Of a stretch of DNA of 64,000 nt, positions 2,986 through 64,000 are shown piece by piece (position 1 is the stretch's first letter; the number at the start of each line of letters is the position of its first letter). The notes below the pieces were generated by a model. It did no database searches. It had not been told where the DNA came from and saw only the letters and a list, made by a program, of their open reading frames with translations. Both the position numbers and the translations under genes were made by a program. Source of the stretch: Fistulifera solaris (Eukaryota); contig AP026134.1 of assembly GCA_030295235.1 (NCBI GenBank), forward strand, positions 620,001 through 684,000, in the 5' to 3' direction.

Positions 2986-4988
2986 ATGACGTCTTCGCAG
3001 TGGACGGCCAACGACCGTTCCGATTTGGTGGCCTTTTTAGTCGCTTACCGAGAAGCGGCCGTCGGTCGTTATCAGTTAACCAAGCCGGAGCAGTTTGTGA
3101 TAGGAGGAATCAATTTTCCCATTTTGTCGCATCGATCGATACGGCAACGTTTCTTGGCAATGCCGATCCAATTGACGGCGAAGCAACGAAAAGTCGTGCA
3201 CGAATGTTGTGTGGAAAGTAAGTCGTTTCGTTCTTTTGTAGGAAAGCACCATGACTCACCATACTTACAAATAAATGATCAGCCTTTTTGTTTCACGGAA
3301 CCATCGATCGAGAAGACGGACAGCGACAAGTATTGATTTCGATTTACGCCGATGGCTTACCGAAGACCGAGGGTCGACGACCCGGTGCTCTCTATATGTA
3401 TCGTCCCTGGTTCTGTCGCGAACGAGAAAGTACAGAAGCCCAAGAAACAGCCATCGAAACCATACACTCTTTAATCGATCAACCGTCGCGTTGTATTCGA
3501 GATACGGATAGTCTCGATCTCGAACAACTCCAAACGATGGTCGTTCCGGGGCCACTGCACGACAATCTACTTCTCGTCAACTCACTGGCGAGTATTCGAC
3601 AAATGCAACGCGAATGGAAGGAACATCCTCCAACCATCATTGCTTTTGACTTGGAAGCGTACAACGAATCCAAATATTGTCAGTTGACCTGTTTGTTACA
3701 ACTTGCGGTACCTTCTCATCCACATCAACGACATTACATCCTTGATCCACTCGTGTCCGATGTATGGGATGAAATAGGCCCTACCTTGGCGCCGTACTTT
3801 GCCGATCCGTCCATTGTCAAAATTGGACACGCCATTGGCGGTCTCGATGTTCCCTGCTTGTATCGCGACTTTGGGATTGTCGTCGTCAATGCGTTTGATA
3901 CGTACGAAGCCGCGACACAATTGAAATTGCCTCTCAAAGGACTGGCGGCGGTGTGTGATCATTATCAGCTACTCCAAAATGGAGACTATTATACAAGCCT
4001 CAAAGAGCAGTATCAATCTTGCGACTGGAGAGTGCGCCCTTTGACGGAACCGATGCTCCAGTACGGTCGATTTGATATTCATTATTTGATGCCGTTACGA
4101 GAACTCATGATCCGTGACCTTACCCGAGATGCTTGGGCGTCCGGTCGTCAGCAATCGCAATTGGTAGCAGAAGCGCTGCAAGAAACATTGCAACAGTTTG
4201 CAAGAGAAGAAGACGAGGGTGATTTTCTGACGTCGGCCCGAACCAGTCTGTCGAGTTATGCGACTGGACGAAATAATGACGGTGAAGACACCGTCGGATA
4301 TCAGAGTGCGCTTTCGCGGCAGTCTTCGTTAAGTGAGTATGATACTCCGGCCGAGGAGGGTAGTATATTGAGTAATTATACAAGGAAAAGTGAGTGCGTA
4401 GCGAATGTGGTATCCCGCGAGCATTTGAATGCCTCTGAATTACGGATGCAGATTGATTTGGGAAGGACCTTGGCCATGAGCCAAGAGCATTGTCGGAAAC
4501 TGTGGAAAGGACGCAGCGAACCGCGTATGGGAGTCTTGGATTTGTTGGTTCAGCGTCTGCGTCGCCATCAAATTCCGTGGACATCATCGCAAAGCGAACT
4601 TTACATCCACCTAGCGGATTGGCGAGATGCGATAGCAGCTGCTCTAGAAACATTGCCGCAATTCATCGCACCACTGGAATTTTTGGCCGCTGTCGCTTAT
4701 CAGCGTCCTTGTACTGAAGTTGGTCTGCGGAGAATATCAACTAGCTTGCCACACGCAATTGAAGAAAATAGCGAAATACGAGAACAATTACTTGATATTG
4801 TTCGCGAATCAGCTTGCACAAAGGAGAGCACAGAGAGTTTTCGCAAAGAGTATTATTTTTATAAAGTGAATAGATTTCGCCGTTTGATGGATGATGGCAT
4901 AATCATGCAATGGAAGTGGTCTATTGCAGTGGCGGTAGTCCTTGCAGGAGCAGCGTTGGTCGTGTCAGGACGCAAGCGCTCGAGATGA
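2986..4988 (+). CDS. RRP6-like DEDDy 3'-5' exonuclease with HRDC domain, N-terminal R3H-like segment and C-terminal hydrophobic helix
   Basis: ExoI IAFDLEAYN, ExoII KIGHAIGGLDV, ExoIII DWRVRPLTEPMLQYGRFDIHYL, HRDC-like LADWRDAIAAALE. ORF 2953-3336 joins 3288-4988 by an inferred frameshift in the T-run at ~3285. Confidence 0.8.
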
Positions 4989-20116: not shown

Positions 20117-23100
20117 ATGCGAAATAATGTATCAAACTGGCTGCTGCGCAAGATTCCCTTCAGCCGGTTTCTTGGTGCGACGAACACGAACTGCGTTGCA
20201 TTTTGCTACTTCGTCGTCTCCCGAAACGTTCGTTCGAATTGGAAATGTCAAAATCAAGCGCGGACCGAATTCGTCGCATGTCAATTATCTCAAAAATGTA
20301 CAAAAATTCCCTTCGTCTCTGTCTCATTTTTCGGTGGATGCTGCAAAAGGATCTCTTGCAGCAAGATTTTTGTCTCGTCGGCGCGGATGCGTGGTGGCGT
20401 CGTCAACTCGTCATGGCGTACGCTGAATTGATACAACGACCCATACAAGTGATTTCCATTACAGCTGACTTGACGGAATCAGATTTAAAGCAACGACGCG
20501 AGCTTTCGAAAGCACCGAATGGTCGTGTGGAATTGACTTTTAGGAATGCGCCTCCCGTTCAGGCCGCGATAGAAGGGCATCTTCTTTTGTTGGATGGCTT
20601 AGAACGAGCTTCTCGGAATGTTTTGCCGACTCTGAACAATTTACTGGAACACCGGAGTATGAATCTGGAAGACGGGCGATTGTTAGTGTCGCCTGACCGA
20701 TACAAGGAGCTATCACATGCCAATGATATGCTCATTCCAGTGCATCCCGAGTTTCGCGTGATAGCGACCACCGAAGTAGCTTCTTCCGCGTCATTAGACC
20801 CTCCTCTTCGCTCTAGATTTCAAATGAGACGTGTGGATACCACCACGGACGATATTCTGGCAAATTATGGTGACAGCGAGTGGCTCTCTACCCTGGTGTT
20901 AGCATTGCAAGGGTCCTCGCCCTTTCCGCTGATTCAGTTCCCAGTGACCCAATCTTTACTGCACGACTATCCATCCGAAGATCCGTATTCCGTTTTTGTT
21001 CGCTCGTATCCCATCGTAAAGAAGCTTGATCATAAAAAAACAGCTGCTTTTGAAATTGCATGGCAACAAGTCTCTGGAACACCTATGACGGATCAGTTGT
21101 CGTCGTATTTGGTCACCGCTGTCCAACGGACAAGTGACAAAATGGCATCTGTGATATTCGCAGACGACAATTCTTCGGTTCATATTGAAAGAGCGGTGCC
21201 TTGTGGTCCAAAAAGAGCTTCAAAAGATATCGACTTCATCATTCTACCAGACAGCAGGCTTACGGTCACTTTTTGCGAAAATGGTACAATCGCATGGAAG
21301 AGGCTGTGATTTACTCTTGGTCAGTCCCCCAGGAGAGGGGAAAACAGCTCTTGCGCTCTTCTTTAGTCAAAAGCTTGGTTACGATATGTACTGGATGCAT
21401 TTACATGCGGAGCAAACCGATTTGTTTCTTCGTCGTGCAACTGTGCGAGGCGAGACTACATGGGAATCGACACCGTTGTTGCAGGCTATTGAGGCGGGTG
21501 GATTAGTTCTCCTAGATGGATTGGAAAAATTGCGACCAGATGTACAGGCTTCGTTACAGAGCTTGTGTACAGAGAGAGACTTTTTTTTGGCCGATGGAAG
21601 GCGGATCTTACCGAGTGAGAAAGATCCAGGTGGTAGAGAGGATACACGGATCATACACGTTCACCCCAGCTTTAGGATTATTGCACTAGCGACGCACAAG
21701 GATAATAACTCATTTACATGGCTTTCGGGGAACCTGGCGAGCATGTTTCACACCTTTTTCTGCCAATTCCTACGGATGACTGTCTTCGAGCAATTTTAAA
21801 CTCGGCTGTTCCTCGACGATCCTCAGAATTACTGGATTATTTAATTAAACTTCGAACTATTGTATCTGCATCAGTTGCTCGAGAATGCGGTGTCGAACCG
21901 CTCTCGGTGCGGAAACTGATCCAAATACTTCGCCGCGCAAAGGACCCTTCAGACCTGTTGCGCGTTGTGAACCAAGTCCTCGTTGCTGATTTATTGCCAC
22001 AAACACAGCGCGGCACACTGGATACAGTTTTGCGTCATCGGGTAAAACTGCCGACTACCGGAGGAAAGATGTCATCACGGAGTGAGCAAATCATTGCGAG
22101 GACAGACAGTGTTTCTATTGGGACATTCACCATGAAACGAAATTGCGCGGTTTCGCAGCCAGAATTGGTGCCACGACCGCGTTTCTTTGACATCCCGAGC
22201 CACATTTCAACGATCAAGGATCTTCTCCTTGATTGGTCCGAAGGAGAAAGAGCGTTTTTGCTTCTTGGGTCGCAAGGGGTAGGGAAGAACATGCTTGTGG
22301 ACCGACTTTGTGAAATCGCAAACTGGGAGCGCGAATACATCCAGCTGCATAGAGATAGCACTATTGGTCAGATTACGTTACAGCCGTCAGTGGAGTCGGG
22401 ACAAATTGTTTGGCATGATTCGCCACTGGTCAGGGCAGTCATTCACGGGCGGTCACTCGTTGTTGACGAGGCTGACAAAGCACCAATCGAGGTTCTTGCG
22501 GTTTTGAAGAGCCTTGTCGAGGATGGAGAATTGTTGCTTGGTGATGGACGGCGAATAAGCCGGTCTATTGAGGCCGGCGATTCTGACACCATACCTATCC
22601 ATCCCAGCTTCACTGTGTGGGTGCTGGCAAATCGACCGGGCTTTCCCTTTATGGGCAACGCCTTTTTCGGACTTATTGGGGATTGCTTTTCGACGCGAGT
22701 TGTCGCGAACCCTGATTTGAAATCAGAAGTTAAGCTTCTTGAGTATTACGGCCCACGAGTGAGCCGAGAAGTGATCAAGTCTCTCTCTTCTTGCTTTGCT
22801 GAATTGCGCTCGATGTCAGATCAGCAAATCCTTTCGTACCCTTACTCGGCTCGCGAAGCTGTTGCAATTGTTAAGCATCTTAATCAGTTCCCGGAAGATA
22901 ATGTATCAACAGCCGTGCACAATGTTCTTGATTTCGATTCGTTTGATGATGCCACTTATAAAACTTTGATCGGTGTTTTCGCGCAACATGGCATCACATT
23001 AGACAATTATGGCGGTACATGGAAAGAGAAGTCGTCGGGCTACAAAGACCTAGCGATTGAATTTACGAATCATGACAAGGAGGGTATCAGCTCTCAGCCT

Positions 23101-60864: not shown

Positions 60865-61470
60865 ATGCGAAGAGCAGTCTTAACTTTAGCGACGTGCTTC
60901 ACCGCGGTCTCGGCATGGACGATGCCTCAGAACTCCGTGGTGACACGGCAGGCGTTTTGGCAGAGTGCCGCGGCCGGAGCAGTCGCCGTGGTCGCTGCGA
61001 GCTCTCCTGTGCAAGCGGAAACTCTTCCGAATGGTGTTACTTATGAAGTGAAAAGAAGGGAGACGGTCCGCAACCCGAAATTGGCGAACTGGCGGCGATT
61101 CGTTTTGCGGCCTACAATGGCGCCAACAAAATTGATGACATCTTTGATACACCCGAACCATACTACACACGCATCGGCAGTGGAGGATTGTTGAAGGGTG
61201 TCGAGGAAACTCTGCCGTTGATGAGACTCGGGGATCGTTGGGAGTTGACTATTCCGGTAAGTGGATGCCCTTTCTATTTGTCTCGTTGTGCCTCTACACT
61301 CCTATATCTCACCGTGTTTTCTGTAGAGCGAATTGGCTTTTGGAAAGAAAGGACGTCCCGCTTCTGCTGGAAAGCCTCGTATTGCCGGAGATGCCGTAAT
61401 TACTTTTGATGTCGAAATGGTAGGCCTCCCAGGACGTGAAATCGAACTCATTGAACTGATTGGTGACTAG
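60865..61470 (+). CDS. FKBP-type PPIase, plastid/thylakoid-lumen targeted (FKBP16-3-like), 2 exons
   Basis: Signal ...TAVSA-WT and lumen-type AAAGAVAVVAASSPVQA. After a frameshift at ~61053: GDGPQP..., IGSGGLLKGVEE, WELTIP|SELAFG..GRPASAGKPRI...FDVE. Intron 61257-61326. Confidence 0.85.
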
Positions 61471-61767
61471 ACAATCTACGTCGATATCAAACTAGCAAGC
61501 GCAGACCGATAAGTGTCACTACAGGATACATTATAAATCATAATCATTAATGACGTTTGTTTCTGTATGAATAAGACTAACAGGAATTGGTTAGTTTCAA
61601 ACGGGAAAAGACAAGGCGCGAACACGATGTGTTCTTTCGACTCAGACACAGCCAAGGTGATTATCTACACGTTATTATTCGGAAACTCTAGTCCGATATC
61701 TTATGAATCTTCACCGTCGATGAACAAGACACGCAACGTAGAAGGATAAACAACGAACTCACCTCGA

Positions 61768-64000
61768 CTACTTCGTGACGCTGTTCTGCAATGCTGCACT
61801 GTTTGTCGACAAAAACTTTCCAAATCGCTGGGTTTGTAATGGCTCAGCAAGTAGCCTCTTTAGAAGCGCTTTTGCTTGTTTACCTTCGCGCAGACGGCTG
61901 AGGTCTCGTTGATCACTTATTTCTTCGATGACTTCGTCCTCATCCAAATCAATCCCTGCTTCGTCTGCCTTCTCACGGAACCAAGCATTTCGTCGCTGAG
62001 TCTTTGATTGCATGTCTTCGGCAACAACAATTTTAGATGCTAGGTTTACCCGTTCTTGAGCTCTGCTTAGGAGTCTACCATCCATATGCACAGGTTCGAA
62101 TCGCGTCGACAGGTCCTTCATTATCTTTGCATACATTTTGTCCTCGTCCGACGCAATTAATGATACACTGCATCCCACGGCATCTTGACCAACACCGCGC
62201 TGCACGATAAAAAACAAAAAGCACGAGTTAGAGACGCAAAAGTAGTACCTTCACTAAAGGCCAAACTTCGTAGCTCAGACAGCCAAGGGAACAATGTTTT
62301 GTCTCTACATAAAGTTTTCAGAGACTCTAGTCCATACACACACTGTGTTCATCAACGCCAAACCCTGCAAAGCTTGACGAACAAGAAGATACTTACCGCC
62401 GTACGCCCTGACCGATGAACAAAGGTATCAACCTTTCGCGCAGCATCGTAATGGACGACAGTTGAAACCGAGGGGATATCCAAACCGCGCGCTGCCACAT
62501 CCGTTGCAACAACGACAACATTCCCTGTAGCGTTACGAAACGACTCTAATACTTTGATACGTGCTCGCTGTAATTATGATAAAACAGAAACGCATCAGTT
62601 AAATTTCAGGGCGAACAATTGAACAATTGAGGCAGCAAGATATCGCGTCAAGGGCTCAGAGATTGTTCACATGACCCTCATGGGAGCGACATAAACAAGT
62701 CGTTTTGACGAGCCATATGTCTCAGGAAACAGTTATTTTCCTCACAGCCACATGACAAAGGAGACTAACATCCCAACCAACGTACCTGTTGCATGTTTGC
62801 ATGTAGCATTTTGGTTTGTATACCCAACGTTTGCAATGTTGTACCAACACGCTTCACAGCGGCAATCGAATTACAAAATACTAAGCAGGGCCCAGATCTG
62901 CCTTCTTTCGTTGTCATTAAATAAGCGTACAAATGGGAATCCTTGTGCAACTGTGTGCACTTTATTTGCTGCAGACGAAGACCCGGTGGCAGGCGAAATC
63001 TGTCATTGGGATCTTTCTTTTGCTTCTTCTTTTCATTGCTTACGGTAGCTTTAGTAGTTGGTTTTTCACTGTGGGAGAGATCAACAATTTTTGCTTTTCC
63101 TCCTGCGTGAGCGATTTCGACAAGTTGAGCGATTGCCCCGTCTAAAACGGATGTATCAGTCCTCTTTCGCTTCTTGGATTTTTCCGAACCAGGTAAAGTC
63201 AGCGTGGCGGAAAAGATGAAGGTTTGGCGATGCACAGGTGGGGATGAAGGCAAACTAATCGCATCCTCATCAGACTCGGATTCATACTCATGCTTTGACT
63301 CCTCTTCGTATTCGTCATCTTTGGGTTTGTTCGCCTCTGCTGGTTCTTGGCGCTGTTTCGCCAGCTCATTCAAGATATTATCACTTAGCATCGTCACTTT
63401 GGCTTCGCCTCGAATTCCTGGCAAACCCAACATGCGATCGCAGTCTTCTTCGTCGACGTCATCCATGTCCTCATCGTCGGATTCGGTCATAGGGTTGGCC
63501 CGATGTACCGCATCCAATATGCGTCTCAATTGTTCGAATGACCCTTGTTGATTCATGCGATCAGCTTCATCCAAGACCAAGAAGCGCAATTGAGACAAAT
63601 CATTTAAATGAGGGTGCTCACGACTCGACATCTGTTAAAAGGCATTCAATGGTGAGATAAGCGAAGGGATACGAGCAATTAATAAGAGTTTGATAGTCTC
63701 CGACAATAATCGGCTCGACATTGTTGGAACTCCGACGGATGTCTAGATTGCGATGTAATTTCTTCTTCGACATAAAAAACCACTCTTTTCATACATTGCA
63801 GACTTACCAACTCCCACAGTCGTCCGACTGTTCCCACCAGAATAGTTGGCCTATCTACATCTAGTACACGAGCCTGTTTGGCTTGAGCTAGCCCTCCTAC
63901 TATACATCCAATCGATGCAAACGCCTTCCCAACCTTTTCAACTTGCAGCGCCAGTTCTCTCGTAGGGGTCAAAATCAGAGCTTGAAGCGGGGAATGTCGA
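61768..64000 (-). CDS. DDX24: DEAD-box RNA helicase DDX24/MAK5-like (5' end outside window)
   Basis: [67 protein letters not shown]. Introns 63807-63632, 62785-62568, 62396-62200. Confidence 0.9.
62271..62360 (-). ncRNA. Intronic box C/D snoRNA, double guide (U53-like + U52/snR78-like)
   Basis: Box C TTGATGA (62355-62349), D' CTGA (62321-62318), box D CTGA (62278-62275), terminal stem TGGC/GCTA. Guides are complementary to the conserved LSU rRNA sequences ACAGCCAAGGGAAC (14 nt) and GACTCTAGT. Confidence 0.85.
62652..62750 (-). ncRNA. Intronic box C/D snoRNA targeting the LSU A-loop U (snR52-type target)
   Basis: Box C-like GTGAGGA (62745-62739), D' CTGA (62725-62722), box D CTGA (62659-62656), stem GGC/GCC. 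Guide GTGAACAATC is complementary to LSU GATTGTTCAC. Confidence 0.7.

Follow-up and report, generated by a model that had tools for sequence, protein, structure and literature searches.

The stretch of DNA analysed here, referred to as the window, covers 64 kb of the diatom Fistulifera solaris (positions 620001-684000 of contig C14, in a genome of 51.7 Mb and 62 contigs). On its minus strand it contains the 3′ part of DDX24/MAK5 (61768..64000), a DEAD-box helicase gene with Pfam DEAD and Helicase_C domains that extends past the window. The coding exons within the window lie at 63631-62786, 62567-62397 and 62199-61768, with the stop codon at 61770-61768, and a second copy of the region is present on contig C13 with 92% identity. 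Homologues of the host gene carry the source label DDX24/MAK5, the best named ones coming from raphid pennate diatoms (56-57% identity). Because a PDB search with the long helicase exon gave 0 matches, the name of the gene rests on these labels. A convergent plus-strand gene, FKBP-like by eye and with a 70-nt intron at 61256-61326, ends near 61470, and the DDX24 3′ UTR runs in its direction. Since spliced contigs reach 61377, the 3′ ends of the two genes may overlap.

Splicing of the helicase transcript was analysed by comparing 61200-64000 with the contigs of four runs (X1-X4) that belong to one study and whose RNA status was guessed. The X1 contigs covered all 30 bins and displayed no joint, as expected of DNA. 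The X2-X4 contigs leave the snoRNA bins uncovered, which has no bearing on expression. A 197-nt GT..AG intron located right after helicase motif VI (62396-62200, minus strand) is removed at a CT..AC joint connecting 62199 with 62397 on the plus strand in two of the four runs (X2 and X4). Together with the Pfam domains and the homologue labels, this joint agrees with a preliminary description, made from the letters of the window, that had placed a snoRNA in a 197-nt intron of DDX24/MAK5. The same description had called this intron the last one of the gene. It is indeed the last coding intron, but a spliced 186-nt intron (61762-61577, minus strand) starts 5 nt past the stop codon and is the last intron seen, with a CT..AC joint from 61576 to 61763 in X2, X3 and X4. 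On C13 (locus L009), the 3′ splice site that this 3′-UTR intron uses on C14 has been lost and splicing takes place about 12 nt further on. Two other minus-strand introns, of 218 nt (62785-62568; joint in X2 and X4) and 176 nt (63807-63632; joint in X2 and X3), complete the set of four introns with a snoRNA or a snoRNA candidate, all of which are spliced out according to contig joints from these runs of guessed RNA status. Beyond the RNA of the preliminary description, the gene contains three more candidates: a paralogue with a target shifted by 2 nt, a guide for the A-loop and a possible guide for 5.8S rRNA.

A double-guide snoRNA in the last coding intron

The RNA in the 197-nt intron (62271..62360, minus strand; C-type hereafter) has the organisation of a box C/D snoRNA of the snoR37/Z157 type, with predicted methylation of LSU at Um2326 and Cm2270. 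Terminal boxes with a short stem, antisense elements and location in a spliced intron were all found. The terminal stem pairs TGGC (62360-62357) with GCTA (62274-62271) through 4 bp, one of them G-U, and is followed by box C, TTGATGA (62355-62349), which begins with T rather than a purine. The D′ guide (62334-62322) precedes box D′, CTGA (62321-62318), and the D guide (62294-62279) precedes box D, CTGA (62278-62275), which ends 75 nt ahead of the 3′ splice site. Between them, a C′-like box, ATGTAGA (62310-62304), aligns at the C′ position of homologues; it is degenerate, and the spacing between D′ and C′ is only 8 nt. Every box, guide and stem was found where the preliminary description had placed it on the minus strand.

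Pairing was evaluated against the LSU rRNA of the same genome, which also provides the numbering (L004 1501-4747). The D′ guide forms 12 bp (11 Watson-Crick and one G-U) and the D+5 rule points to U2326, whereas the D guide forms 16 bp (14 Watson-Crick and two G-U) and points to C2270. The earlier proposal that both guides match LSU, that they address the uridine of U52/snR78 and the cytidine of U53, and that these sites are 56 nt apart is reproduced in this genome. The rRNA sequence on which that proposal was built differs from that of this genome at a single base, which lies outside the duplex. The target stretch is identical in all three LSU copies compared. Units of rDNA are present on at least four contigs (C15, C16, C45 and C46) in both orientations, and 12 SSU matches were scored.

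Relationship with the snoR37 family

Comparison with Rfam identified RF00333 (snoZ157/R69/R10, clan CL00063) as the best family for the C-type RNA, with 35.2 bits, an E value of 4.6e-5 and a match spanning positions 1-100 of the 100 in the model. The consensus of RF00333 contains both guides in the order found in the diatom RNA. The score is below the gathering cut-off of 55 bits, and the RNA is therefore best regarded as the diatom counterpart by targets and layout rather than as a formal Rfam member. Rfam at gathering cut-offs gave 0 matches in the whole window, which is why annotation misses these RNAs, and no snoRNA family was detected in the 4 kb upstream from the intron with the 5.8S complement. 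RF00333 corresponds to AtsnoR37 and shares its clan, CL00063, with U52, U53 and snR78 (PMC3511168). In Arabidopsis, SNOR37 has been assigned to U2411 and C2355 (PMC6461891), and RiboMethSeq mapped Cm2366 and Um2422, both assigned to AtsnoR37-1, with Cm3869/Um3925 as human equivalents, Um2421 as the yeast one and a spacing of 56 nt between the two sites in plant and human (PMC8583080). The site assignment of AtsnoR37-1 in PMC8053127 agrees with this.

The diatom RNA resembles Arabidopsis snoR37/RF00333 in having two guides, in their order, in the two LSU sites 56 nt apart and in matching the model over its full length. It differs in lacking the long internal hairpin that the plant consensus has between D′ and C′ and in being present as one copy per intron of a DDX24 gene, with an A-type sister (described below) that is not listed for snoR37 in the available text of these sources. 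Human SNORD52 (U52) and yeast snR78 direct their D′ guide to the same uridine (Um3925 and Um2421, respectively), but each is listed with this one site, whereas in the diatom a single RNA has the guide for the other site too. Tetrahymena TtnuCD15 (RF02291) also has both guides in its consensus, although its model is shorter (65 positions) and the diatom C-type RNA scores 31.8 against a cut-off of 75. With RF00333 as best family and both sites attributed to AtsnoR37-1 in the sources cited above, the evidence sides with the earlier suggestion that one RNA covers the sites of two vertebrate snoRNAs as plant snoR37 does, and the Rfam comparison proposed at that time found the family below its cut-off. 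The RNA is thus considered, with a probability of roughly 0.9, a diatom member of the snoR37/Z157 family of double-guide box C/D snoRNAs.

A paralogue in the 3′-UTR intron

The intron that follows the stop codon contains a paralogous snoRNA with a 5-bp stem (61637..61720, minus strand; A-type hereafter) that matches RF00333 with 33 bits. Its box C is GTGAAGA (61714-61708), its D′ guide (61696-61683) is followed by CCGA and has LSU U2326 as predicted target, and its D guide (61657-61646) is followed by CTGA (61645-61642), 65 nt ahead of the 3′ splice site. The D guide is 2 nt longer than that of the C-type RNA, and its 11 Watson-Crick pairs place D+5 at A2268, the A that precedes the SNORD53 cytidine by two positions, as in a guide of the SNORD92 type. 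The lengthening by 2 nt (GT) still allows 11 bp because the target reads CACAGCC. On C13 the A-type RNA is preserved at 78 of 83 bases compared with 83 of 103 elsewhere in the intron (p 0.009), with CAGA as box D.

A similar arrangement has been described in human, where SNORD53 and SNORD92 overlap on LSU at C3848 and A3846 (bioRxiv 10.1101/2021.07.15.452550) and share one host gene (PMC8178906). Both systems consist of related snoRNAs in introns of one gene whose D guides address a C and the A two positions before it; since the D+5 of the A-type has moved to A2268, the two diatom copies would share out the C and A sites as SNORD53 and SNORD92 do. The diatom host is DDX24/MAK5, whereas that of the human pair is presumably WDR43, and both diatom copies also bear the U52 guide. 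The Arabidopsis methylation tabulated as the equivalent of human Am3867 is Am2362, which lies 4 nt before the corresponding C and is attributed to another guide (PMC8583080, PMC8053127).

Neighbouring candidates in the same gene

The 218-nt intron contains a single-guide box C/D snoRNA (62653..62749, minus strand) with box C GTGAGGA (62745-62739), D guide GTGAACAATCT and CTGA (62659-62656), the latter 88 nt ahead of the 3′ splice site. The D+5 rule predicts U2828 of LSU as its target, which is the uridine of the A-loop and corresponds to Um2921 in yeast. Taken alone, its score is reached by 61 of 3000 shuffles. Guide and box are retained in four of four orthologous introns and in L010, loci that had not been selected for this RNA; in L010 (3700-4080) the A-loop guide adjoins a double guide in an intron-like stretch with no DDX24 exon near. 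A second guide conserved among orthologues or scoring against rRNA was not found, and no snR52 match was listed by Rfam for this RNA. The A-loop uridine (Um2921/Um3254) is guided by snR52 in yeast and probably by CD25 in Dictyostelium (PMC8817022), and no guide for it was found in Arabidopsis according to the available text of PMC8583080 and PMC8053127. The diatom RNA shares its target with snR52 and CD25 (PMC8817022), and differs in having neither an Rfam snR52 match nor a conserved second guide.

The 176-nt intron contains a possible non-canonical C/D RNA (63696..63771, minus strand) with a C-like AAGAAGA and a 15-nt complement to 5.8S rRNA (63749-63735) followed by a CGGA box; its predicted target is an A of 5.8S rRNA at L004 position 980. 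Five of 3000 shuffles reach its score, and the complement is kept on C13. Because the four orthologous introns examined hold a guide for LSU A812 in place of the 5.8S complement, this candidate is weaker and lineage-specific. It has CGGA instead of CUGA boxes and looks like a replaced snoRNA.

Distribution in metagenomes and other diatoms

A pattern built from the two guide cores, which demanded both guides but not the box after the D guide, matched at least 125 stretches of a metagenome collection. The matches listed correspond to 82 distinct RNAs, of which 75 are C-type with one base and CYGA after the D guide and one more is C-type with CAGA. A-type RNAs are rarer among these 82, with four that have three bases and CYGA and one with CAGA. 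The remaining RNA has no box. When 20 of the listed loci were compared with Rfam, RF00333 was found in all 20 and exceeded its cut-off in four; five of five further loci matched it with 31.7-49 bits and none passed. Because both guides are in the RF00333 consensus and the matches are spread over eukaryote metagenome contigs, the double guide is no diatom peculiarity but a form common among eukaryotes. Vertebrates and yeast, in which it is split into single guides, more likely represent the derived condition.

Exons of DDX24 were recognised on six of the at least 125 loci listed. The closest proteins are from raphid pennate diatoms for L042 and L067 and from Thalassiosirales for L034, L051, L075 and L090. 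The comparison of orthologous diatom introns that the preliminary description had proposed gave a consistent result: a double guide occupies the intron after motif VI in all six loci, C-type in five and A-type in L034, in a sample found through the snoRNA pattern where DDX24 orthologues without the snoRNA could not appear for that reason. As the same intron of L034 holds an A-type RNA, position alone does not determine which site is addressed. L051, whose contig includes only the 3′ part of the post-motif-VI intron, has two double-guide copies there. A terminal intron with an A-type copy was present in two of the five loci that cover the stop codon, just inside the coding end in L042 and 26 nt past the stop codon in L067, and absent from L034, L051 and L075. 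The C-type copy of L067, with CTAA and CAGA boxes, was the only one found outside the pattern. L117 was dropped as an orthologue, its helicase match being weak (53-60 aa).

The orthologous intron of L090 (1-668, minus strand) contains three consecutive snoRNAs. The first is a C-type RNA, the second a U14-like RNA directed to SSU C398 that matches SNORD14 with 38.8 bits, and the third another copy in which the U2326 guide is present but the D guide has diverged and has no good target in the rRNA of the present genome. Other hosts exist too, as a related copy lies in an intron of RanBP1 (L052). A GTAGTAG loop between D′ and C′ is present in 16 of the 82 distinct homologues listed, and absent from the copies in the window; its carriers include L010, L012, L034, L036, L051, L052, L075 and L090. 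The loop may be an accessory pairing element. Pairing with an exact CTACTA in rRNA was ruled out, the word being absent from the LSU and SSU of this genome.

Alternative explanations

The likeness of the intron to rRNA could in principle be fortuitous. Single box-anchored matches are indeed not rare in the window, where 16 were listed, four of them from the snoRNAs described here and 12 at other places, unsupported and with scores of 10.5-13.5. Two of the single LSU complements, at 20632 and 59776 on the plus strand (scores 12.5 and 13.5), have no partner guide, apparently lie in or against coding sequence and are probably due to chance. In the C-type RNA, however, two guides come together, and dinucleotide shuffling of the intron (n = 3000) produced two box-anchored guides scoring at least 11 in 0 cases and one such guide in 16. 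The pair is the sole one on both strands of the 64-kb window, both guides are equal to the RF00333 consensus and orthologues occupy the same intron, so that chance likeness can already be considered refuted. It is slightly less improbable, yet still very unlikely, that the C-type copy is a decaying relic from which no stable RNA is made. The sub-threshold Rfam score would fit decay, and so would the folding analysis, which detected no extra stability over shuffles for the C-type RNA, the A-type RNA or the 5.8S candidate (z values of 0.06, -0.25 and 0.28, respectively); the value of the A-loop guide (z -2.0) was given no weight as evidence. Box C/D RNAs devoid of their proteins, however, are not expected to fold stably. 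Against decay, 89 of the 90 snoRNA bases are kept in the C13 copy compared with 97 of 107 in the remainder of the intron (Fisher p 0.013), and canonical CTGA is present at both D and D′. In addition, this is the only C-type copy matched per haplotype, the whole genome giving four pattern matches, to which C13 and C14 each contribute a C-type and an A-type copy, and the control 0.

A more serious objection, although an improbable one, is that only one of the guides directs methylation and the other holds or folds LSU through accessory or chaperone pairing. Accessory and non-modifying antisense elements have been described, including those of SNORD53 and SNORD92, and A3846/C3848 are hypomethylated in vertebrates (bioRxiv 10.1101/2021.07.15.452550). 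The short distance between D′ and the degenerate C′ box, and the fact that the Um site is also served by the guide of the paralogue, point in the same direction. These considerations are outweighed by the 75 of 82 distinct listed homologues that are C-type with an intact CYGA, in a search whose pattern demanded both guides, and by the methylation of both sites in Arabidopsis (PMC8583080). A snoRNA with two working guides is consequently the preferred reading.

A possible pathway from intron to ribosome

For this double-guide snoRNA, a pathway can be proposed that begins with the removal of the 197-nt intron from the DDX24/MAK5 pre-mRNA, which the contig joints document. The debranched intron would then be trimmed up to the box C/D kink-turn, where Snu13/15.5K, Nop56, Nop58 and fibrillarin would stop the nucleases and leave an RNA of about 85-90 nt. 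Trimming, assembly and D+5 methylation of box C/D RNAs are summarised in PMC7671301. On the basis of the pairing found in silico, the D′ guide would direct 2′-O-methylation of U2326 and the D guide that of C2270, as expected from the D+5 rule and from the sites mapped in Arabidopsis, human and yeast. The paralogue in the 3′-UTR intron would keep the U2326 guide and, with its lengthened D guide, act on A2268. Finally, placing the guides, including that for the A-loop, in a helicase gene may couple their supply to ribosome biogenesis. Such hosting is not unusual, since genes for ribosome biogenesis represent 33% of the snoRNA hosts in Ostreococcus (PMC7671301).

Origin of the 2-nt target shift

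A-type RNAs are not restricted to DDX24. One occurs in L041, from a GC-rich organism, and another in L124, by an exon for dynein heavy chain. The L041 copy is part of a polycistronic-looking cluster (3700-4400) of guides for LSU C1373, A752 and A743, the A-type double guide and a guide for SSU A1731. Outside the guides, the A-type RNA of L034 is nearest to the C-type RNA of L090 (0.58 compared with 0.40 for the next; 96/95 support), a grouping that, as far as the sequences go, favours a repeated origin of the A-type. On the best tree of 34 hand-picked rows out of 86 distinct ones (102 columns, no vertebrate sequence, bootstrap unsettled), the seven A-type rows need five changes, and a single clade of all seven was not rejected on these 34 rows (p-AU 0.53), the comparison of one origin with several giving p-AU values of 0.53 and 0.45. 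As to a possible common descent with vertebrate SNORD92, the best Rfam match of the A-type RNA is RF00333. A literature search on repeated shifts of snoRNA targets found nothing. Taken together, it can be suggested, tentatively and at somewhat less than even odds, that the double guide is old and eukaryote-wide and that specificity for the A site was gained several times through the same 2-nt GT lengthening. The same tentative reading would cover the raphid pennates, with their paralogue in a terminal DDX24 intron, and separately L034 (a centric-like diatom), L041 (a GC-rich alga), L124 (dynein-heavy-chain intron) and the vertebrates (site of human Am3867/SNORD92), the lengthening being painless because of the CACA repeat in the target.

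Implications

The snoRNA described here is a member of a known plant-type family that is in most respects ordinary, and it reveals no new mechanism. Neither a snoRNA catalogue nor a methylation map for diatoms (nor, in the first case, for stramenopiles) was found in the literature searched, which covered few subscription papers; in the accessible part of PMC4247016, SnoR85 is the sole one mentioned and serves as control for qPCR. In line with the earlier remark that diatom snoRNAs are poorly catalogued, within that literature they seem uncatalogued. Against this background, the locus provides four predictions for diatom rRNA methylation (U2326, C2270, A2268 and U2828) and an instance of animal-like intronic hosting within a gene for ribosome assembly. 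The pair formed by the C-type and A-type RNAs offers clean material for studying how a guide changes its target. If the A site was gained repeatedly, diatom DDX24 would offer a compact and natural case in which to study how snoRNAs switch targets. The same gene would, in addition, provide a guide for the uridine of the A-loop, a universally methylated position with no known guide in plants.
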